A DNA stretch of 24,282 nucleotides from a virus. Shown here one piece after another: positions 2,553-14,150 of this stretch (positions are counted from its first letter, which is position 1; each line of letters begins with the position of its first letter). The notes under the pieces were generated by a model. That model was given only the letters and a program-made list of their open reading frames with translations. It ran no database searches and was not told the origin of the DNA. The DNA lies in the IMG/VR virus record IMGVR_UViG_3300028626_000223, positions 1 through 24,282 of that record. One strand, written 5' to 3'. The translations under genes and the position numbers were made by a program.

Positions 2553-4294
2553 TAGTAACCGCCTATCTGATACTTTCTTTTTACCGTTGGGCGCTCTTCT
2601 GTTTTGTAATTTGATTCAAGAGCAAGAGCCCCACCGATAGAGATTAAATCGACGTCTTTACTGGTGCTGACGCTGTCTTTTCTTACTGCAGCCTGAAGTG
2701 CATACTCCCCGCTTTTGATTAGTTGCAAGACTTCTGGAGCAATGTTTCCAAACTCTACTGTCATGAGTTTGTTCTGTTCTCGTTTAATAGAGTAGATCAT
2801 TACGTCGTATGTTGACGCTGGTTCTATGTCCTTCGTCGCAGTTTGCAGCGTGAATCTTTTCCCTACTGTAATATCTTTGTCGAAAAAATCCGATGATTTG
2901 TAGGTAAAACTCCCACTCAATATTCCGTTCTGGATATTCGTGAGCACCCCCCAAGCAAGTTTATCGCACCCATCTTCACTGATGATTCCCTTTGCATGGA
3001 TAGTAACTTCAATCGACTTATACTGGGTGGCGGTAGATACCATATTTGGATAGTATGGCTGGATAACAGCCCCCCTCCAATGGGCATATGCGAGGGTATT
3101 CTCCTGACCTCTCCCCAGATACTCACGGGACTCCGGATTAACTGTAGCAAGCTTAATACTGGTTTCAGTAATTTCTTTAGCCTGAATGATTTCAGACCCA
3201 ATCTTGAAATATTTTGTTGCAGGAGAGATATTAGAAAGAATCCCCGTATCTAGCGCCTTAATTATTGGCATAGTTTGTGTGATTAAACACGGTTGGCCGT
3301 ATAGATGAGGGGTATCTCCAGAAGAGAACCATTTCTCACGGGTAATACCAGTCACCCCCCCGTTTGCATCTCCTAAAGAATACGTATTTTCATACCCTAT
3401 GAATTCATTATTGACCCGAAACGTATCGTTTACTCCCCATCCCACTACGTTTCTCATACTTTGCAACCAAATACAATCGGAGTCTCCTAAGTGGGTGAGA
3501 TACATATGTGGGTCTGATGGGGGGAGGATTTCCTCTTCTCCTAAAATGGCGTCATCGCAATCAAGATAAAAATATGCGTTCTTTATTGGCTCTTTATCTT
3601 GCGTTTCCATATCTATGAGGAAGGAGGCGGTCGTAGTATACCCAGAAATCTCTTTTTCAACCCCGATTACCGTTACAGAAGAGTATTGTTTATATAGCGA
3701 CCGGTCTAATTTGAGCCGGAATATATCTTTGTTCTCAACTAGAATAAGGGGGTCTTCAAGTGCGTCTATGATCCCGTCAGATACAATTATTTTTGCCCAC
3801 TGGTTTAAGTATGCGGTCGTCGCAGGTTCACACTCGTATCTCCAATTAAGCCCTGACATAGAGGCGATCGTGTTAAGATGAGTTAGTATCGATCCACTTC
3901 TGAATGCATACCGAATTAGCGGGTTTCGTGTTGCATTATATTCGAACCAGAACAACTCGCTGCCATCCGGATTCTTTGGGAGAAGGGCATAGATCAACTC
4001 ATTCGCTCTCATAATAGGCATCTCGTCTTGGTTGGTTACTACCGTGTCTCGAAGCAAACACAATATGGATTCCAGAGTAACCGATTCTATCCGAGATGAC
4101 ATCGACATGCTGGTTTCTTTTACAACCCCATATAATTTGACGGATTTGTCAACCAGCACCACACGTGTAGCACCTTCTGTGAATTTTCCCTCGTCACTAC
4201 TGCTAGCGACGACCCTATTGAATCTGAACGTGTTAACTCCGTTTAGCGACTCATACAAGGAACAGTTGAATGGGATGATCGGCTTTTCGGCCAT
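2552..4294 (-). CDS. 580-aa tail-tip hub (Tal/baseplate-hub-like) protein
   Basis: Position downstream of the TMP. The N- and C-terminal parts have a hub-like pattern (LNTIASMSGLNWRY, IFRLKLDRS, VTVIG, MIYSIKRE). It carries two inserted E[IF]I...R...H modules. Confidence 0.55.
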   Translation of the reverse strand: MAEKPIIPFNCSLYESLNGVNTFRFNRVVASSSDEGKFTEGATRVVLVDKSVKLYGVVKETSMSMSSRIESVTLESILCLLRDTVVTNQDEMPIMRANELIYALLPKNPDGSELFWFEYNATRNPLIRYAFRSGSILTHLNTIASMSGLNWRYECEPATTAYLNQWAKIIVSDGIIDALEDPLILVENKDIFRLKLDRSLYKQYSSVTVIGVEKEISGYTTTASFLIDMETQDKEPIKNAYFYLDCDDAILGEEEILPPSDPHMYLTHLGDSDCIWLQSMRNVVGWGVNDTFRVNNEFIGYENTYSLGDANGGVTGITREKWFSSGDTPHLYGQPCLITQTMPIIKALDTGILSNISPATKYFKIGSEIIQAKEITETSIKLATVNPESREYLGRGQENTLAYAHWRGAVIQPYYPNMVSTATQYKSIEVTIHAKGIISEDGCDKLAWGVLTNIQNGILSGSFTYKSSDFFDKDITVGKRFTLQTATKDIEPASTYDVMIYSIKREQNKLMTVEFGNIAPEVLQLIKSGEYALQAAVRKDSVSTSKDVDLISIGGALALESNYKTEERPTVKRKYQIGGY

Positions 4295-5358
4295 TATATC
4301 ACCTCGAATTTGCTCGATAGTTTGTATAGACTTTCGACGCGGGTTCTAAACTCTACTGTTTTTGGAGGAGATGCGTCGATTTGTGTGTTAAACCCAATTC
4401 CTATGTAGATGTTATATTTTGAAGTGAAATCGACATGAGGTTGCGCAATGTCATACTTACTTATAAACTCAACATGGGGGGAGATTATGCTGTAATTAGA
4501 TGTGAACGGAACGTCATAGTGGCGCGAAATGATGTTATATATTGACCCGAAATGCCTATAGACCGGGGGGACATAATATGAGACAATTACAACGCCAGAC
4601 CCCCCAGCATATGTCCATGAACCACCGTTTTTGTTCCTACATCCGCCTCCTCCACCAAGCCCATTTGTTCCCGGAGTCGGATCAGAATAATACGAAGAGT
4701 TTAACCACCACCCTCCTTGTCCACCTCCTCCAACGCCGCCATACCCTGTGTTTACCCCGGTATTGTAGTATTTTCCACCACCTCCACCAGCATATGCTGT
4801 AGAGACTCCGGTAATTGTAGAGTATTTTCCCGGGCCACCATATCCGCCACCAGTCCCCCCATGGACATCTGCATTTTCACCGGGGCCACCAGCACCACCG
4901 CCTCCACCAGAGCTTCTATCTGGGTAACTTCCATATACCCCGCCTCTATACCCCTGCCCAGAAACTCCAGACCCCGCAACACTTCCTCCACCGCCACCAG
5001 ATCCTCCATCGTTGCCCCCGCCTGCTCCTCCACCATATGCGACAAGGCCAAACGCTTCTGTGTTTGCTCCATTTTTGTGAGCCCCATCATAGATCCCACC
5101 GGCTCCTATTTTAATAGTGTGCGGGCCTGTAGTAACAGACAAGTTAAAGACTTCTACATACCCGCCTGCTCCTCCTCCACCGTCTCCATACCCCCCGCAA
5201 CCGCCTCCACCAACAAGCAACACCCATGCTTGAGTAACTCCTTCAGGGAACGACCATTCAACTGAATCCTGACCTCCTCCTGCACTAATGCTGGAGGTAA
5301 ATTTTGCAATACGCCTGCCATCAACCGGGTCTCTGGTTTCAGTTACAGTGACCGCCAT
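4294..5358 (-). CDS. Glycine-rich-domain tail/fibre protein with C-terminal F-x-[ST]-x-[YIV]-x-I-like repeats
   Basis: VLLVGGGGCGGYGDGGGGAGGY...IKIGAGG through GGSGVVIVSY is the glycine-rich domain common in phage tail proteins. Confidence 0.7.
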   Translation of the reverse strand: MAVTVTETRDPVDGRRIAKFTSSISAGGGQDSVEWSFPEGVTQAWVLLVGGGGCGGYGDGGGGAGGYVEVFNLSVTTGPHTIKIGAGGIYDGAHKNGANTEAFGLVAYGGGAGGGNDGGSGGGGGSVAGSGVSGQGYRGGVYGSYPDRSSGGGGGAGGPGENADVHGGTGGGYGGPGKYSTITGVSTAYAGGGGGKYYNTGVNTGYGGVGGGGQGGWWLNSSYYSDPTPGTNGLGGGGGCRNKNGGSWTYAGGSGVVIVSYYVPPVYRHFGSIYNIISRHYDVPFTSNYSIISPHVEFISKYDIAQPHVDFTSKYNIYIGIGFNTQIDASPPKTVEFRTRVESLYKLSSKFEVI

Positions 5359-6721: not shown

Positions 6722-7176
6722 GATTGTTTCTCGACGATTTGTAGTGAAAAACTCACGTTGATCGTATCTCCATGCCCCCCGGCACCAGAGACAGTCCACC
6801 GTTCAAGCAGAACGTAATAAGTCCGTTCACCCAATATCAGAGTGTAGGGTACATATGTGTCACTGTAATTCTCTTTTTTGAAGAATCCTTCTGCGTAATG
6901 GTAGGTGGATGAATCTCCAATACCATCGAGCCACGTGGTATTGATTGTTATGGTGTCTGACTCGATGAAGTTCAGATCAAACCCTATCGGTTCCTGATCC
7001 GGCACGGGGATTATAATTGGCGATTTGGACATCGTCCGGGTCCAGTCTGCAATCCCTGCATAACTGGGCCCGGTTGCCGTTTCCAGTGCCCGTTGTAGTT
7101 CCCCCCCTATAGTAGTCTGCCCGATATACAACCTACCTCCATCAACATTCTCAAGGTATACCTCTCCCCGTGCCAT
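6718..7176 (-). CDS. 152-aa distal tail protein (Dit-like), inferred from position
   Basis: First gene after the TMP (TGATG overlap); the size and terminal beta-strand INVSFSLQIVE fit the tube-fold Dit class. Confidence 0.55.
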   Translation of the reverse strand: MARGEVYLENVDGGRLYIGQTTIGGELQRALETATGPSYAGIADWTRTMSKSPIIIPVPDQEPIGFDLNFIESDTITINTTWLDGIGDSSTYHYAEGFFKKENYSDTYVPYTLILGERTYYVLLERWTVSGAGGHGDTINVSFSLQIVEKQS

Positions 7177-10100
7177 CAGATCACCAACCGTCTGCTATCT
7201 GCTACCATCATCTGTTTAAACTTCTCAAAGAGTATCCGGTCGTCTTCCCGTTGCACAACAAACGTGTTGTGATTCGTTATCGTGGTCTTGGTAGTATCAG
7301 TCCGGACATTTGAGTTTGTATTGACCCGCGCAGGTATAATCGCTTCCCCTGAATGCACATTCACGACCCCATCTGATAATATATCTCCACCAGATGCCAT
7401 TGATGGAATATTCAGTGCCCCCTTTGCACTATTGAAGAGCCCGCCAATTCCCGGCAGCCCAGACAGATACCTATCAATAATCTCCATAATGGCAGATGGC
7501 AGCCCTGCGAGGTATTCTCCAAGCGACGCAAATGCCCCGAGTATTGCTTCCCTAACGGTGTCTCCAGCCGCAGCAGCAGATTCCTGCCACGCCGTTACTG
7601 TTGCAATCACAGCGTCAACAACTCCCGTTACTGTCGCAACCACAGCAGATAACACATCTCCTGCCTTTGTAAGTGCATCCGATATCGCTCGTGTTGCGGT
7701 ATCAATTCCTCCAGTGACTGCAGCACCAACTACAGCCGGAGCACCTTGCAGATCGACTCCTGTGTTATATGCAGTGGCCGCAACTGATCCAAGGAACCCA
7801 TACTGGTTCGTAAGGTGCCCCCCTGCATTCGCCTGTTCTGGAGTGAGGTTCAGTCCTGACGCGAGTTTGTCAGCCTCTTCTTTCATTGCAAAGAGGTCTT
7901 TGAATCCAAGTATAATTGGGCCGAGGATTGCTCCTCCTGCAGCACCAACCGGCCCGCCTATCGAACTGCCAGTAACTGCACCTGCAGTTATATCATTTAC
8001 CAAGGATGCGGCAATCCCTCCCATGTCTTCCCCAAGAGGACCAGCGATTGCTTTACCGATTGTTGCACCATCCCGGATCATAGAATCTCTGGCAAAGTAT
8101 CCTGCTACTCCAGCAACCGGCCCGAGTTTCGGGAATCTCGCAAGCAGTTTTGCAAACGCAAATGCCCCTGCAGCTGTCATCCCTCCGGTTGCAAGAGCCG
8201 CCCCGGTGTCTCCTGTTCGCAGGTATTCGGCTCCGCCAGTAAACACCCCAAGACCGGCACTCCCAACTAAAGCTGCGGTCCCGCCCTTTCCAAGAAACTT
8301 GTCTCCGACCTCTGCGACTTTCTTTCCCGCATTTACAACGGTATCTATTACGCCCTTTGCCGCCTCGACCGGCTTTGGGATGAACGCCTTTATTGCCTCA
8401 ACAACTTCGCCAAACTTTGTCTTTATAAACTCCCATAATCCCCCCGCCTTTTCATTTATCCGTTCCCAGATGCCGGCCGCTTTTTCTTTTATCCATTCCC
8501 ACACCCCGCTTGCTTTCTCCTTGAGCCATTCGAACAAGGACCGGGCCCCTTCCTTTATTGCTTCCCATATTGATTTGAACAGGTCTTTGAGGATATCGAG
8601 CATCCCTTTCCCTTCAACTCCGGGAACCGTTGCGACTGGCATGGCGTGCAATATAGAATTCAGAACTGCCAGCCCGAGACCGAGCAACGCAATGATTCCA
8701 AATCCTTCTATAGATATTAAAGAAAGGAGTGTTCTCTGCGATTTGCCTACACTGATTGCAGTCTCAATCTGTGCCTGCTGTCCTTTGACGAAGATCCTGC
8801 CGAGTCCGTGCATCCCTCCTTTAATCGCACCGATGGCAATACCGACACCAGCAATAGGTGCCATGACTGCTCCAATCATCTTACTTGCTACACCAAGCCC
8901 GCCAACAATTGATTTGCCGATGTCAGATGAAAGGAACGAGCCAACTCCCTGTGCAATGGTAGTGATCCCGCCTTTGAAGATGTCACCCGCACCGCCAACA
9001 ATGCCTCCCATCCATGACCCGAAGTCTCCACCTGCACCCGCAACTCCTCCTTCAGCCCGGTGTTCAAACCTGCGGACAACTTCTTTCGGCACGATGAGTT
9101 CGCCGGGTTCAGTAAGAACAGGAACGCTGTCTCCTCCACCATATCCGGGGATCCTCATACCAAGTGCAGCCTTGTACTTTATTATCCTCTGCCCAGACGG
9201 TTGTGGGATTGCCCCGTCTTCTTCTTCTTCTCCCGCAGGGCGATTTACTCGAACCCCTTCAAGTCCAGATGGCGAATCTCCAAACGGCCCGAATATCGCC
9301 ATGGATGCTCTTTTTGATCTCCCCCATATCCTCGACAGTATTCCCGGTCCTTGTTCTGGAGGAGTGTAAGGAGTTCCATTCAGAGCGGCAGTAAGTTTCT
9401 CAAACGCTGCAGCAGCGGCTTCAACGTCCTTCTTCATCTTATAGATGCTGTAAAGTGCAGCGAAAACTGCAACTCCAACAAGTGCGAGCCCTGTGCCAAG
9501 TGCTATCAATTTGTGGCCTTTGAAGAAGTTCCCGAGCCATATGAATCCTCTTGTGATGAGTAAGAATGCGGGGAGAAGCGGGCGGATTATCATGTCAAGC
9601 ATGTATCCCCATCCTCTGCCAACAGCACCCATGCTTTTCTGATACACTTGAGATGTTGCAGTAAGTATCCTCAATACATGAGCAAATATCAACCCTCCGG
9701 TCACTGCATACCGGGTGCTGGAAATCAGCCGGTCAAACTGCATCCCGAGTTTCCCCCCAGACACTTTTGCTTCAGCAACCGGATCATATCGCGGTTCTTT
9801 TCCCGGCCCAAACGCTGGCTGGCCTTCTGCAATGAGATTGAGGGTTTCCTTTACGGTCGTTTTAAACCCGCCTGCGGCATTTAAAAACGCAGGACCGACC
9901 TCTGATCGTATCTCATCAGAAAGCACCTGTGCTGTGACATGGGCAATGCCCCTTGCAGGGTCCGCAACGTATTCCGGAATTGGTGATATTGTGCCGCCTT
10001 CGACATCCTGCTCCATCTTTGTCCCGGTCTTTAAGAACCGTGCTCCCCCCATGGCTTTGAACAGCGGGTTTGGTATGACGTGGAACCCGCTGCCTGCAGG

Positions 10101-13100
10101 GACAAGCATCTCCGGGCCCTCTTCTCCGACGACTGCAGTCTGCCCGGGCATAAGCGGGCCTCCAGACGCAAGATACTTGAATATGTTTGGGATTCTGGTC
10201 CCAGCGGGGACAATAGTTCCTGCTGCAGTTACCGGGTCGAACACCTCATAGGGGAACGCCGTAAGAGAGAAGGCTTTCAGAGCAGGGTGCTCCCGTGACA
10301 TGACTCCTTTCTTTGGCAGTGCAAGCCGGACATCAGGAGAAACTTTTGGAGAGGATAAGAAGTCCTTGATGTTCGCTGCCATCGGGATGAGCGGTTCTAA
10401 CGGGTTCTGTTCTCCCACTGGCATAAACCCCATCTTCAGATACGATGCAACCGTGTCTTTAAACGGTATTGCTTTCAGTTCAATATGGGTAAGTAGGTCC
10501 CCAACCGGCCCTTTCAGCGCCTTTGCAAGAGCCATGCCGATAAGAGTTGGTCCAAGCCCTTTCCCTCGCTCAAGTGCAGCGAGTTCGCCAACATACATGT
10601 TCCATCCGGACCCGCGGTCAGCAACACGTATCGGGAGAACGCTGTCGGTTAATGTTGGACGGTTGAACGATCCGATTGCCCCTGCGATGTTACTGGAGGT
10701 GTCGTAGGCAATCACCTTGTCCATTGGTTGCAGGAGCAGGTCTTTCGCAAGTGAGACAGATCGGTCAGCCACGAGGGAGTTGAGGTATGTGTATTCAGTC
10801 TTGTACTTCTTTCCGAGCGATGCGGCTTTCAATGCAGCGTCTGCTTCATAGGCGAATTCAAACGTCCCTCCTGCGAGTTTTCTCGGGAAAAGCGAAGAGA
10901 TGACATCAGACTGCCCTAGATCGTAGACCATGGCGTCAAATTGCTCGCGGTGATGTGAAATCCAGTCTTTTGAAAGCCCTTTTGTTAAGTATTTTAATTC
11001 AAGCCCTGATACCAGATCCGCCTTGATGGTCCTTGTTTTATAAAACGCATCGCGGACACCATCATATAAGTTTTCTTCTACGGTTTCGAGTGATCGAATG
11101 TCTGCGACCATCCCTTGCCCGCGAGACGAAATCAATTCAGCCTCGTGTGCGCTAATATACCCAAGACGCCCTTTCAACCGGTCTGTTATTTTGACCTTAA
11201 ATAAAAGTTCGTGGAATTCGCGAGATATTTGGGGCAACAGAGACAGGTATTGATATGATGGATCTATGCCTTGTATCACAGCGTCCCCTATTGTATACCT
11301 ATTCTTTGTGACGCTATACGTCATTCCCGGTGCCCTAAATAGTGTCGCCCCTTTTAATGCATCTACCAACCCCCCAGACGTTTTAGAGATGTGTTTATCG
11401 AACGCATCTATTTCTTTTATGAAGTCCGGGTTCGTTTGCCTACTTGTGCGATACGCCCCCCGCCCGCGTAAAAACGTGCGTAATTGCAGACTTGGTTTAT
11501 AATCCTCACTTGTTTTGTAGTCACCATACGGAGTGACGCCTTGGATCTCCTCTAGTGATTCTCCAACCGCTTTTGTGAATTGTTGGCCTATTGAGAATAG
11601 GGGGGCATTTAATGGCGCAAACTTATCATAAATCTCAGAACTCCATCTCAAAAACTTCTCTGAATCAACCTTGTATAAATGATCTCCGTAATCTAACGGG
11701 TGATCCACATAGTTGAAAAATGGAATTTTCAAAGCCTTGGAATATAATGACGGGGTTGACTTTTTGCTTATGGCATTACCAAGATCCCGCCACCCACTAG
11801 AGATAAACGCTTCATACGCCTCTATTGCTGCGTCTTCATTAGATCCAATAAGAAGATCATCAACTGTTCCACCAGCAAGCCGCCGAGGATTAATTATCCA
11901 CTCTCCGGGAGTGAGTTTGCCGAGGACCGAATCCTGATCCCCAGATCCCGGAACAATGCCTCCTTTGTTAAACCCGAGCAGCCGATCAATGATAGGTTTC
12001 CGAACACCGCCTTCAAGGTTCAGATACTTCTGCCAGTTGAGATCGCTCTGCTCACCAAGCACTTCTCCAAGGATCGGTGCAAGTTCATGGTTCAGGGCAT
12101 CTCCGATGATTTCTGCTATGGCTTTCTGCGGTGCTTCATCTTCAGCACTTTTCGGAACAGACCTGATGTCCTGAATGTATTTTTGCCGGACTAATCCGTT
12201 CTTGATCTCCAGCAGCGTTGTGTTGATTGTATCTAATTTTCCAGCGATACTGCTGACACCAGAGGTAGACTTTGCGCCGAACGACTCTTCGATCTGTTTC
12301 CCTATGGTCTTGAGTTTGCCACCGATGTTCTTCTGGATCTCTGCGGTGATGACATAGACCATCTCTTGTGATGCCAGTCTGACCCCATCAAGCATATCGG
12401 TGATCGACTGCTCAATGCCTGACATCCACATTGACTGCATTCCGATGAACTGATCGTATGCATCATCAAGGACTTTGATACGTTCGCGTGCAGACTTGAC
12501 GTAATCGGCTTCAGACTCGGTTGGCACCCGGCTTGCTCCACCAGATGCTCTGTGTTTAGATGGGCGTTTGTCTGGTTTTGATCTCGGGGTCGTTGTCGCT
12601 TCTCCCGTCTCGCCGGTTGCAGCCTTCTGTTTCTTTCTGAACTCTGCGACCTCTTCTGCCGTAAGTTGCTGTTTGCCCCCAATACCCTCCTGCTTTAATG
12701 CCGCTTTCTCGTTCTCAAGATCCTGCTGGGCTTTCTTCCAGAGGAACAATTTCTTCTGGTAATCTTCTTCTGCTGCATCGGCGAGCGATTGAGACACTGT
12801 AGTGTCCCCTGCGTCCATAGCATCGAAGAGAGCAGCTGCTTTCTTGTCAGCATCTTCCATCTCCTTCTGCAGCCGGGCAACGTCTGCTTCAAGTTTCTTT
12901 ATGGTTGCAGTGTGAAGAGACTGGGATTCAACAGCAGGAACGCCAGCAGCCTGTTTCTCTTTGACTGCTGCAACAACCTCTTCCTGAGTTACCTGCTTGA
13001 CTTCCTGCTTGACTTCCACCGTCACTTTCTGTTCAGGAGGTTTTCCGACCTCGACAACCTTGATCTTTGCCCGTTCTTTATGAAGAGCCTGCATCTCCTG

Positions 13101-13601
13101 AATCAACTTGTTCATCAGGGCTTTGTCGTCATCGGTGAGAGAATCGTTGCCGATCATCTCATGGATATGTTCCTGAATCTGGCCGAGTATTGCAGAACTT
13201 CCTTGCGACTTGGTTGCCTTGACGATCTTCAGAACCTTCTCAAAGAAGGCGTTATACATCTGGGCGTAATCAACGGCATAATAGTCCTGCCCCTTTCCAT
13301 ACTGGACTTTCACCAGCCCGGCAGACAGGGCTTTTGTCACCTTGCCTTTCCGAGATGACAGCAGGCGTTCTAGGCGGAGCAGTTCTCCATCATAATCCTT
13401 CTCAAAATTAGAGAGAGATCCTTCTATCTCAAGCAGGGCGTTGTTGAGAAACCCTTTTATCTGGTTCTCGCCAAGCCCGGAGAGTCCTTTTTCAACAAGT
13501 TGCCCGAGTTTCTTTGCACGGCTGGAGATCTGGTTGCTTGCAGTGGTCTTACCTATAGTACTCCGTGCCGTTACGTCTATCTCTGATGCGTTGTCTGTCA
13601 T
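7176..13601 (-). CDS. 2141-aa tape measure protein with embedded ADP-ribosyltransferase-like and GNAT cassettes (start revised to ATG 13601)
   Basis: Longest ORF, directly after the tail chaperone. It has Ala/Gly-rich helical regions, several hydrophobic segments, 11-residue Trp repeats and four AxGG...GE-hydrophobic-P modules typical of TMPs. Confidence 0.92.
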   Translation of the reverse strand: MTDNASEIDVTARSTIGKTTASNQISSRAKKLGQLVEKGLSGLGENQIKGFLNNALLEIEGSLSNFEKDYDGELLRLERLLSSRKGKVTKALSAGLVKVQYGKGQDYYAVDYAQMYNAFFEKVLKIVKATKSQGSSAILGQIQEHIHEMIGNDSLTDDDKALMNKLIQEMQALHKERAKIKVVEVGKPPEQKVTVEVKQEVKQVTQEEVVAAVKEKQAAGVPAVESQSLHTATIKKLEADVARLQKEMEDADKKAAALFDAMDAGDTTVSQSLADAAEEDYQKKLFLWKKAQQDLENEKAALKQEGIGGKQQLTAEEVAEFRKKQKAATGETGEATTTPRSKPDKRPSKHRASGGASRVPTESEADYVKSARERIKVLDDAYDQFIGMQSMWMSGIEQSITDMLDGVRLASQEMVYVITAEIQKNIGGKLKTIGKQIEESFGAKSTSGVSSIAGKLDTINTTLLEIKNGLVRQKYIQDIRSVPKSAEDEAPQKAIAEIIGDALNHELAPILGEVLGEQSDLNWQKYLNLEGGVRKPIIDRLLGFNKGGIVPGSGDQDSVLGKLTPGEWIINPRRLAGGTVDDLLIGSNEDAAIEAYEAFISSGWRDLGNAISKKSTPSLYSKALKIPFFNYVDHPLDYGDHLYKVDSEKFLRWSSEIYDKFAPLNAPLFSIGQQFTKAVGESLEEIQGVTPYGDYKTSEDYKPSLQLRTFLRGRGAYRTSRQTNPDFIKEIDAFDKHISKTSGGLVDALKGATLFRAPGMTYSVTKNRYTIGDAVIQGIDPSYQYLSLLPQISREFHELLFKVKITDRLKGRLGYISAHEAELISSRGQGMVADIRSLETVEENLYDGVRDAFYKTRTIKADLVSGLELKYLTKGLSKDWISHHREQFDAMVYDLGQSDVISSLFPRKLAGGTFEFAYEADAALKAASLGKKYKTEYTYLNSLVADRSVSLAKDLLLQPMDKVIAYDTSSNIAGAIGSFNRPTLTDSVLPIRVADRGSGWNMYVGELAALERGKGLGPTLIGMALAKALKGPVGDLLTHIELKAIPFKDTVASYLKMGFMPVGEQNPLEPLIPMAANIKDFLSSPKVSPDVRLALPKKGVMSREHPALKAFSLTAFPYEVFDPVTAAGTIVPAGTRIPNIFKYLASGGPLMPGQTAVVGEEGPEMLVPAGSGFHVIPNPLFKAMGGARFLKTGTKMEQDVEGGTISPIPEYVADPARGIAHVTAQVLSDEIRSEVGPAFLNAAGGFKTTVKETLNLIAEGQPAFGPGKEPRYDPVAEAKVSGGKLGMQFDRLISSTRYAVTGGLIFAHVLRILTATSQVYQKSMGAVGRGWGYMLDMIIRPLLPAFLLITRGFIWLGNFFKGHKLIALGTGLALVGVAVFAALYSIYKMKKDVEAAAAAFEKLTAALNGTPYTPPEQGPGILSRIWGRSKRASMAIFGPFGDSPSGLEGVRVNRPAGEEEEDGAIPQPSGQRIIKYKAALGMRIPGYGGGDSVPVLTEPGELIVPKEVVRRFEHRAEGGVAGAGGDFGSWMGGIVGGAGDIFKGGITTIAQGVGSFLSSDIGKSIVGGLGVASKMIGAVMAPIAGVGIAIGAIKGGMHGLGRIFVKGQQAQIETAISVGKSQRTLLSLISIEGFGIIALLGLGLAVLNSILHAMPVATVPGVEGKGMLDILKDLFKSIWEAIKEGARSLFEWLKEKASGVWEWIKEKAAGIWERINEKAGGLWEFIKTKFGEVVEAIKAFIPKPVEAAKGVIDTVVNAGKKVAEVGDKFLGKGGTAALVGSAGLGVFTGGAEYLRTGDTGAALATGGMTAAGAFAFAKLLARFPKLGPVAGVAGYFARDSMIRDGATIGKAIAGPLGEDMGGIAASLVNDITAGAVTGSSIGGPVGAAGGAILGPIILGFKDLFAMKEEADKLASGLNLTPEQANAGGHLTNQYGFLGSVAATAYNTGVDLQGAPAVVGAAVTGGIDTATRAISDALTKAGDVLSAVVATVTGVVDAVIATVTAWQESAAAAGDTVREAILGAFASLGEYLAGLPSAIMEIIDRYLSGLPGIGGLFNSAKGALNIPSMASGGDILSDGVVNVHSGEAIIPARVNTNSNVRTDTTKTTITNHNTFVVQREDDRILFEKFKQMMVADSRRLVI
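8385..8570 (-). repeat. 33-nt / 11-aa periodic TMP repeats (WEAIKEGARSL FEWLKEKASGV WEWIKEKAAGI WERINEKAGGL WEFIKTKFGEV)
   Basis: Aromatic residue every 11 aa, the classic amphipathic TMP repeat. Confidence 0.85.
10179..10862 (-). other. GNAT-fold acetyltransferase cassette inside the TMP
   Basis: MYVGELAALERGKGLGPTL (acetyl-CoA loop R-G-x-G-x-G, 10551-10571), then IELKA and VASYLKMGF (FY-x-K-x-GF-type motif, 10425-10442). Confidence 0.8.
10863..10886 (-). repeat. Cassette-boundary motif PRKLAGGT
   Basis: Near-identical peptide to PRRLAGGT at 11865-11888, encoded with different synonymous codons. Confidence 0.85.
10887..11864 (-). other. ADP-ribosyltransferase-like (VIP2/Alt, R-S-E clade) cassette inside the TMP
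   Basis: Ordered motifs DY...LRTFLRG, IKEIDAFD, TLFRA (Arg 11334-11336), GDAV...DPSYQYLSL, ISREF, LLFKVKI, GYISAHEAELISSRG (E-x-E 11136-11144). The STS motif is degenerate (YLS). Confidence 0.68.
11865..11888 (-). repeat. Cassette-boundary motif PRRLAGGT
   Basis: Directly follows the module FNKGGIVPGSGDQDSVLGKLTPGEWIIN and precedes the ART-like cassette. Confidence 0.85.
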
Positions 13602-14150
13602 AAGGATCTCTCTTGTGCCCAACGTTCTCGGGCTGCAGGCAGGGCATGTTCAAAGAACAACCGGTCCATATCAGTCAGCCGACCTAACCACGACGGGGGC
13701 CATCCAAGCAACCGGCACAGTTCGATGTCGTACTGACCTTCAGGCGCCTTTGCGAAAGTTTGCAGTCTGCTTCTCTTTGTTGCCGACCAGCGTATACATC
13801 ATCTCGAGCACTTCAAAGGCAATACCGTCTTCAGTGTCAATCAGTTCCCATGTCTTTGGAACGTTCCATGGAGACTCTTTGCACATGCCGGCAAGCACTT
13901 CATACGTGCTCATCTCCAGCGGTTCGAGACTGTCGCCCTGATTCTGCATCTTTTCCATTACCCGTCGCAGCGGTTTTGGAATGGTCGGCCGGATCTTGAT
14001 CGGGATCTCGTAGACGGTGAGCGTGAGAAACTGGTTCTCTACGTTGTGCAAAAGTTGGCGCACTTCGTCAAAAGAGGTTTGCTCTGCATCTACGTAAGTG
14101 GACAGTTCGTCCTGAAGTCTGGCGTATCTCTCCTCGTTTGTTTCTGCCAT
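13598..14150 (-). CDS. Predicted 183-aa frameshift product (GT-type tail assembly chaperone), +1 shift at TTT-CGC
   Basis: The +1 frame reads FAKAPEGQYDIELCRLLGWPPSWLGRLTDMDRLFFEHALPAARERWAQERSL*. It has no upstream start of its own, fills the whole chaperone-TMP gap, and its stop overlaps the TMP ATG (ATGA). Confidence 0.75.
13740..14150 (-). CDS. 136-aa tail assembly chaperone (gpG-like)
   Basis: Acidic helical protein between the tube and TMP genes. Confidence 0.8.
   Translation of the reverse strand: MAETNEERYARLQDELSTYVDAEQTSFDEVRQLLHNVENQFLTLTVYEIPIKIRPTIPKPLRRVMEKMQNQGDSLEPLEMSTYEVLAGMCKESPWNVPKTWELIDTEDGIAFEVLEMMYTLVGNKEKQTANFRKGA
13752..13757 (-). promoter_or_regulatory. Putative +1 ribosomal frameshift site TTT_CGC
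   Basis: In-frame UUU followed by C allows tRNA-Phe to re-pair on UUC; it lies just upstream of the gpG-like stop. Confidence 0.68.

Follow-up and report, generated by a model that had tools for sequence, protein, structure and literature searches.

The tape measure protein (TMP) gene in a 24,282-nucleotide stretch of viral DNA (IMG/VR record IMGVR_UViG_3300028626_000223, positions 1 to 24,282; this whole stretch is hereafter the window) contains a sharply bounded, optional and rare cassette, the C-terminal part of which shows statistical kinship to ADP-ribosyltransferases (ARTs), with an Arg and an E-x-E motif in register. Our best explanation, which we hold with moderate confidence as a whole, is that the cassette is horizontally exchanged cargo inserted in frame as a self-contained unit into the TMP of a probably archaeal virus, and that its C-terminal ~185 residues form a very divergent version of the R-S-E (Alt/VIP2/C3, PF03496-type) ART fold. 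A preliminary description of the same DNA, made from the letters and their translations, had proposed an ART-like cassette at this position.

A discrete, optional cassette within the tape measure protein

The features that define the cassette are as follows (aa numbers refer to the TMP, and P0003 is the sole homologue of the cassette, discussed below):

7176-13622, minus strand: TMP gene, the largest open reading frame (ORF) of the window, 2148 codons with a TTG start
11865-11888, minus strand: upstream junction motif PRRLAGGT (aa 579-586), which closes the widespread TMP motif GG..PG...GE..[IV].P
10863-11864, minus strand: optional cassette (aa 587-920), 334 residues comprising 326 aa and the second junction motif
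11553-11864, minus strand: N-terminal ~104 residues of the cassette, outside the ART alignment and partly conserved in P0003
11001-11552, minus strand: ART-like core (aa 691-874), with a colinear hhalign alignment to a PF03496-verified ART profile
10863-10886, minus strand: downstream junction motif PRKLAGGT (aa 913-920)

The limits of 10887-11864 given in the preliminary description held up: this segment (minus strand, aa 587-912) is immediately flanked on both sides by PR[RK]LAGGT, the two copies of which differ in their DNA while the peptide is kept, and the unit is an insertion or deletion relative to a close relative of the TMP on another metagenome contig (L010). In the latter a single PRRLAGGT is followed by a GNAT-like cassette, and the 334-residue unit is precisely absent, with flanks that are 75% identical to our TMP upstream and 91% identical (92% at the DNA level) downstream. 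The stretch is a discrete optional cassette inside the TMP. It also differs in composition from its carrier, having a GC content of 44.1% against 51.2% in the rest of the gene and, at third codon positions, 43% against 49%. In two near-identical strains the cassette differs by three non-synonymous and no synonymous codons, which are too few to interpret either way.

The cassette is rare. An exhaustive phmmer search of 1.84 billion (1.84e9) representative proteins recovered P0003 as the only homologue (33-36% identity, E 4.8e-16), this being a giant TMP of 2173 aa (L002:4136-10657) found in three Logan assemblies. Its copy of the cassette occupies the equivalent place, just ahead of the conserved TMP core, and is preceded by further, unrelated cassettes bounded by the motifs PRYLENGT and PRRLEGGT. 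No third copy emerged from pattern scans of IMG/VR, the JGI metagenomes and GTDB genomes, with either the cassette or the two-sequence alignment as query; a tblastn search of phages and plasmids with the core (E <= 10) returned noise only; and of two word-indexed searches of a 5.8-billion-cluster collection the first found only the protein's own cluster and the second nothing, the latter being weak evidence. The N-terminal ~104 residues of the cassette had no match in the Pfam, PHROGs or NCBIfam searches.

Two further motif-bounded stretches were noticed in P0003 (aa ~510-885) in front of its copy of the cassette, one of which, with LWAFRG, SWS and EQHELIS, looks ART-like by eye. As a candidate second ART-like cassette of P0003 (cassette B) it is not supported, with an hhalign P of 0.067-0.069, poor register and no similarity to cassette C.

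Profile-profile kinship to ADP-ribosyltransferases

A profile of the cassette built from two sequences, those of this virus and P0003, was compared by hhalign with two ART profiles. The first of these comprised fourteen Alt-family domains from T4-like phages; the second combined the Alt family with the C3 exoenzyme of phage c-st, a VIP2-like protein of mycobacteriophage PBI1 and the ART of halovirus HVTV-1, each of these three located by a PF03496 match above the cut-off. Collecting ART sequences from GTDB genomes, plasmids and IMG/VR yielded none or only close Alt relatives, and a word-indexed search with the Alt domain likewise returned near relatives only.

Against the Alt-only profile the cassette scored 24.4 (P 0.0087, probability 4.6%, 157 colinear columns), a value reached by none of 200 column shuffles and by one of 190 natural 326-aa segments. 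As a calibration, the bona fide ART of PBI1 scored only 20.3 against the Alt profile, and therefore scores of such size occur among true members. Against the broader profile the cassette scored 36.2-36.6 (P 4.4e-5 to 8.7e-5, 152 columns), whereas the natural controls (180 segments of 326 aa) peaked at 23.1, the column shuffles (n = 150) at 19.5, and the reversed profile scored 12.4. When the whole TMP was scanned, only the cassette-containing windows stood out, at 28.4-28.8 as opposed to 16.8 or less elsewhere. Comparisons with the single ARTs (C3, PBI1, HVTV-1) were not significant (P 0.33-0.58), and the similarity is detected by the family-wide profile only. On broadening the profile, the true signal rose from 24 to 36 while the false positives dropped; as judged from these profiles, this behavior is that of real remote homology. 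An ART-fold origin of the module appears quite likely, and there is good statistical evidence, short of conclusive, that it is an Alt/VIP2/C3-type ART of great divergence whose active site is atypical.

The active-site region

The preliminary description had read a VIP2/Alt-type order of motifs in this region. The strings that it quoted are all present in the minus-strand frame and in the order given, namely YKPSLQLRTFLRG, FIKEIDAFDKHI, TLFRA, DPSYQYLSL and ISAHEAELISSRG, and they go beyond chance, in that they fall in blocks conserved in P0003 and the hhalign score of 36.2-36.6 exceeds all controls (<= 23.1). The part of its ART assignment that stands is the colinearity of the C-terminal ~185 residues with PF03496-type ARTs, with the Arg and the E-x-E in register, as seen by profile-profile comparison only; recognition by a curated ART profile did not follow. 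Its suggestions that the ~100 N-terminal aa may select the target, and as to which host proteins are hit, are guesses. The positions of interest are:

11334-11336, minus strand: Arg763 of the TLFRA string, which falls opposite the catalytic Arg of T4 Alt (TLYRS)
11241-11249, minus strand: Y792-L793-S794, aligned to S-T-S, with Tyr replacing the first Ser
11136-11144, minus strand: E827-A-E829, aligned to E-M-E of Alt and followed by LISSRG, where Alt has VILPRG

Arg763 follows an aromatic residue (F762) and is invariant in P0003 (TLFRG). After Y-L-S comes SLLPQI, resembling SLYPNI in Alt, and the third block displays the [QE]-x-E signature with its subsequent hydrophobic strand, E827-A-E829-LIS-S-R standing opposite E-M-E-VIL-P-R. 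The register between the cassette and T4 Alt can be followed from FIKEIDAFDK, aligned with IEKAIDNLDSAFK, to HEAELISSRG, aligned with NEMEVILPRG, and the blocks conserved between this virus and P0003 are the active-site blocks. The profile alignment bears out the caveat of the preliminary description that S-T-S is replaced by Y-L-S, and it does not favor sliding the register by two residues, which would put S794 in the place of the first Ser. We also rejected a reading of AHEAEL as an HExxH protease motif, since a second His is lacking and the homologue reads SDELQ. That the module is an active ADP-ribosyltransferase has, from the sequence comparisons, close to an even chance, perhaps slightly less.

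Weighing the assignment against its alternatives

Several observations weigh against our interpretation of the module as an ART delivered by the TMP. First, the cassette, its core, the two-sequence alignment and the homologue matched nothing among the curated profiles of Pfam (E <= 10), PHROGs and NCBIfam or the PDB sequences, and this includes the ADPrib_exo_Tox/ART profiles named in the preliminary description (no match at E <= 10). PF03496 itself (cut-off 23.4 bits) came up empty over the window, where T4 Alt as a positive control gave 124 bits. Our own Alt-family hidden Markov model, run in HMMER over 2989 ORFs, does not rank the cassette, and in a language-model protein atlas its neighbors are unnamed or LPD38, with chance-level scores of 0.83-0.85 and no ART. 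Second, even against the broader ART profile the HH probability is only 60-69%, and one segment of an unrelated capsid protein scored 24.8 against the Alt-only profile. Third, the family has only two diverged members, and both of these carry a Tyr (Y-M-S in P0003) where all the known members that we aligned have the first Ser of S-T-S. Moreover, P0003 has E-L-Q at the columns of the E-x-E, with Gln at the position of the catalytic Glu; therefore, the E-x-E is not conserved across this two-member family. Finally, arrival of the N-terminal half of the TMP in the cytoplasm is assumed.

The substitutions bear on the alternative that the module descends from an ART without transferring ADP-ribose, either as a pseudo-enzyme binding NAD+ or a host protein, or through an altered chemistry such as an R-Y-E-like site or NAD hydrolysis alone. 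The presence of Y-[LM]-S in both members, the E-x-Q of P0003, the failure of all curated profiles and the dispensability of the cassette in the close relative L010 agree with this proposal. However, our virus has kept the Arg, the two Glu residues and the hydrophobic strand plus Arg behind them, all intact and in register, and it is the active-site blocks that are conserved between two copies of only 33-36% identity. Further, ARTs of the H-Y-E class normally stack NAD on a Tyr at the strand-2 position (PMC5512222), and we infer from this that the Tyr need not abolish NAD binding. We consider loss or alteration of the transfer activity to be rather unlikely.

The failed searches and the middling HH probability, together with an AlphaFold2 prediction from the two-sequence alignment with a predicted local distance difference test (pLDDT) of just 32.3 for the whole cassette and 30.3 for the core, would also be compatible with an unrelated orphan domain, the ART motifs and HH score of which are coincidental, and which might attack the envelope or S-layer or act on the receptor side or in assembly. 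The capsid segment outscored the cassette on the narrower profile, and HMMER with the two-sequence cassette alignment over five T4-like genomes gave no match. Against this stand the rise in score upon broadening the profile, with the false positives moving down and all 330 controls left below; the colinearity through four motif blocks with matched catalytic residues; and the juxtaposition of an ART with a GNAT domain, which is a described theme. An unrelated domain is a distinctly improbable account, and we retain the divergent ART fold as the preferred explanation.

The carrier protein and its other variable elements

The 2148-aa ORF is assigned as the tail tape measure protein on the basis of profile matches, genomic position and hydrophobic segments. 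Ten PHROG families match its aa 1150-2136, six of which are annotated as TMP, and the best matches lie in the C-terminal half (phrog_1272, E 1e-14; phrog_58, E 4.7e-10). When this half was used in tblastn, only annotated TMPs were matched among cultured phages. The gene lies between tail-chaperone-like and distal tail genes, in a synteny kept in related contigs, and a hydropathy scan reveals membrane-spanning-like hydrophobic segments at aa 1369-1396, 1572-1601, 1631-1664 and 1987-2012. Gene callers of the public collections begin the protein 7 codons later, yielding 2141 aa. Among ten structural genes neighboring the TMP, the only Pfam match was that of a 354-aa protein encoded downstream of it with a Gly_rich_2 domain (PF21722, E 1e-13; 4294-5358, minus strand). 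The remaining parts of the TMP that concern us are:

10173-10862, minus strand: GNAT-like cassette (aa 921-1150), directly after the ART-like cassette
7179-10172, minus strand: conserved TMP core, with 40% identity to P0003 over aa 1151-1639 and the PHROG TMP matches

The GNAT-like cassette has weak matches that converge on one stretch, the motif-A region, to PHROG_1249 acetyltransferase (E 0.055) and the NCBIfam AAC(6') family (E 0.12). L010 has it too, at 91% identity and after the one junction motif present there. In phage polyvalent proteins one GNAT family typically has an ART neighbor in the same polypeptide (PMC5512222).

The junction motif itself comes directly after one copy of a motif of 26-45 residues, GG..PG...(D)S/V...GE..[IV].P (window ~11889-11966, minus strand; aa 554-579), three more copies of which are discernible by eye in the TMP near aa 1153, 1490 and 2095. 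Among metagenome contigs, 117 unrelated ones had TMP-like ORFs that matched in this GG..PG motif alone, with identities of 45-65%.

The TMP also carries tandem 11-residue W-E-x-I-K-E-K-A repeats (window 8412-8501, minus strand; aa ~1690-1740), of which a strict pattern finds 3 units here (~5 by eye) as against at least nine in L010 (L010 1-4104). TMP length sets tail length, and the number of these repeats may constitute a ruler-length polymorphism of the tail. Given that the family varies in such units (W-x-x-I-K-E-K-A, ~3-5 here and >= 9 in L010), one might see in the cassette, too, mainly a non-enzymatic spacer or length element by which tail length or TMP packing is tuned. However, it is neither repetitive nor coiled-coil-like, contains conserved enzyme-like blocks, has a foreign base composition, and shares its bounding junction motif with the neighboring enzyme-like cassette, all of which make a spacer role highly improbable.

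The virus and its host

The window is an IMG/VR contig of 24,282 bp with a completeness estimate of 49%. Contigs with an identical TMP carry genes for an ERCC4 nuclease and for an MCM helicase that is full-length and of archaeal type:

298-975 of the window, plus strand: ERCC4-family nuclease gene
L005:22408-24402: archaeal-type MCM helicase gene, just beyond the window on longer contigs of the same virus

The MCM protein matches archaeal MCM structures with E-values of 4.8e-124 to 1e-102, and the eukaryotic MCM2-7 proteins rank below these. In light of this archaeal-type MCM and the ERCC4 nuclease on contigs with the same TMP, we consider the virus to be probably an archaeal tailed virus.

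A possible mode of action

We infer the fold, catalysis, cytoplasmic delivery and target of the module, which we regard as probably an ART-fold cargo unit of uncertain activity. The TMP would reside in the tail tube and be the first component out of the virion at infection. Its C-terminal hydrophobic segments might then engage the host membrane, and the N-terminal half, with the ART-like and GNAT-like cassettes, would enter the cytoplasm, the site of NAD+ and acetyl-CoA. Since both of these cofactors are cytoplasmic, the simplest model would have the TMP ejected before the DNA and anchored in the membrane, with its N-terminal cargo directed to the cytoplasm. There, the module might ADP-ribosylate one or more host proteins; should its E-x-E work as that of Alt and VIP2 does, the residue modified is likely to be Arg. 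As with T4 Alt, such modification of host proteins could favor the early phase of infection.

A more specific version of this model casts the TMP of an archaeal tailed virus as a plug-in delivery vehicle: an R-Y-E-type ART and a GNAT domain would be paired at the PR[RK]LAGGT junction, injected ahead of the DNA and modify archaeal transcription, translation or defense proteins. This we offer tentatively, as a doubtful but conceivable elaboration.

Relationship to known systems

Virion-packaged ARTs such as T4 Alt are textbook cases of host reprogramming at entry, and the known ones travel in the head. Mycobacteriophage TMPs are carriers of embedded enzyme motifs. ARTs packaged in virions are well known from T4 Alt and from MuF-VIP2 fusions (PMC7302621; PMC9503650), and ARTs are the commonest protein-modifying domains in phage polyvalent proteins (PMC5512222).

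The cassette agrees with T4 Alt and the wider Alt-VIP2-C3 clade in how its helix motifs (Y...LR, then I..[IL]D.[AF]..K) are ordered and spaced, and it likewise has the [YF]-R strand, S-L-x-P-x-I behind the STS position, and an E-x-E with its hydrophobic strand and Arg. Like Alt (PMC5512222), it would also be a part of the virion and at hand upon entry. In contrast to the clade, it goes unseen by the PF03496 model, has Y-L-S for S-T-S, and has a loop before the E-x-E that is ~5 residues shorter than in Alt and C3. Furthermore, Alt is a separate, head-packaged protein, whereas the cassette is embedded in a TMP and its host is probably archaeal.

The polyvalent proteins (Iyer et al. 2017, PMC5512222) offer another parallel, in the form of a large virion-associated protein with strung, exchangeable enzyme domains, here an ART-like and a GNAT-like one side by side. 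They differ in that the ART there is of the H-Y-D type, as opposed to the R-S-E-like one here, and in that the carrier here is a TMP. The processing metallopeptidase (MPTase) that polyvalent proteins have, like the LPD domains, was without a Pfam match in the cassette and TMP searches; LPD38, at a chance-level score of 0.83, is the sole language-model lead to these proteins.

In the MuF-VIP2 fusions of actinobacteriophages, such as gp4 of Microbacterium phage Percival (PMC7302621), an ART is likewise fused to a structural virion protein and is missing from the homologue in a close relative. However, those are fusions to a head (MuF) protein and are readily recognized by profiles, whereas the present cassette is a very divergent internal insertion in a tail TMP.

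Among archaeal viruses, ARTs have been mentioned in HVTV-1 and HCTV-5 (PMC8651126). We find that HVTV-1 gp115 (1313 aa, annotated as a 'zeta toxin') ends in a PF03496 ART domain (E 3.5e-11):

KC117377 68622-72563 (L119:8623-12564): HVTV-1 gene 115, between head-assembly and prohead-protease genes

By its domains and position, gp115 looks like a head-packaged multi-domain effector of a cultured archaeal virus. Its parallel to our probably archaeal system is a PF03496 ART within a large morphogenesis-module protein of a tailed virus of Archaea, and it differs in belonging to the head module rather than being a TMP, and in having a canonical S-T-S and the acidic motif A-D-E; compared pairwise by hhalign, its ART shows no similarity to the cassette (P 0.33).

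The contractile injection system effector Sle1 (PMC13277306) follows the same principle as the cassette, an interchangeable functional domain borne on a TMP scaffold and set free upon ejection. Nevertheless, neither the Sle1-type effectors nor the cell-wall hydrolase motifs of TMPs are ARTs, and their sites of action are membranes or the cell wall, whereas the cassette would need cytoplasmic NAD+.

In the literature searched we found no ART cassette in a TMP: 'tape measure' is absent from the account of the polyvalent proteins (PMC5512222), 'tape' is absent from a 2022 survey of viral NAD/ADP-ribose systems (PMC9503650), and in the literature holding both 'tape measure protein' and 'ADP-ribosyltransferase' neither term occurs in any title or abstract. 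Likewise, entry-stage ADP-ribosylation in Archaea is undescribed in the literature that names both archaeal viruses and ARTs.

Implications

The enzyme class and the logic of its delivery by the virion are known; what is new is the carrier, the orphan sequence family and, probably, the domain of life of the host. Since no curated profile sees this family, cargo of the same sort has probably been under-annotated in viruses from metagenomes. If the tentative plug-in version of our model is correct, no ART effector delivered by a TMP would have been described before, nor any such entry-stage host modification for Archaea. An ART in this position would also imply that the TMP is a modular platform for effector delivery, with a junction motif at which close relatives gain and lose whole cassettes. 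The presence of an ART beside a second cofactor-dependent enzyme, in a virus with archaeal replication genes, would also hint at ADP-ribosylation in Archaea at the stage of entry.

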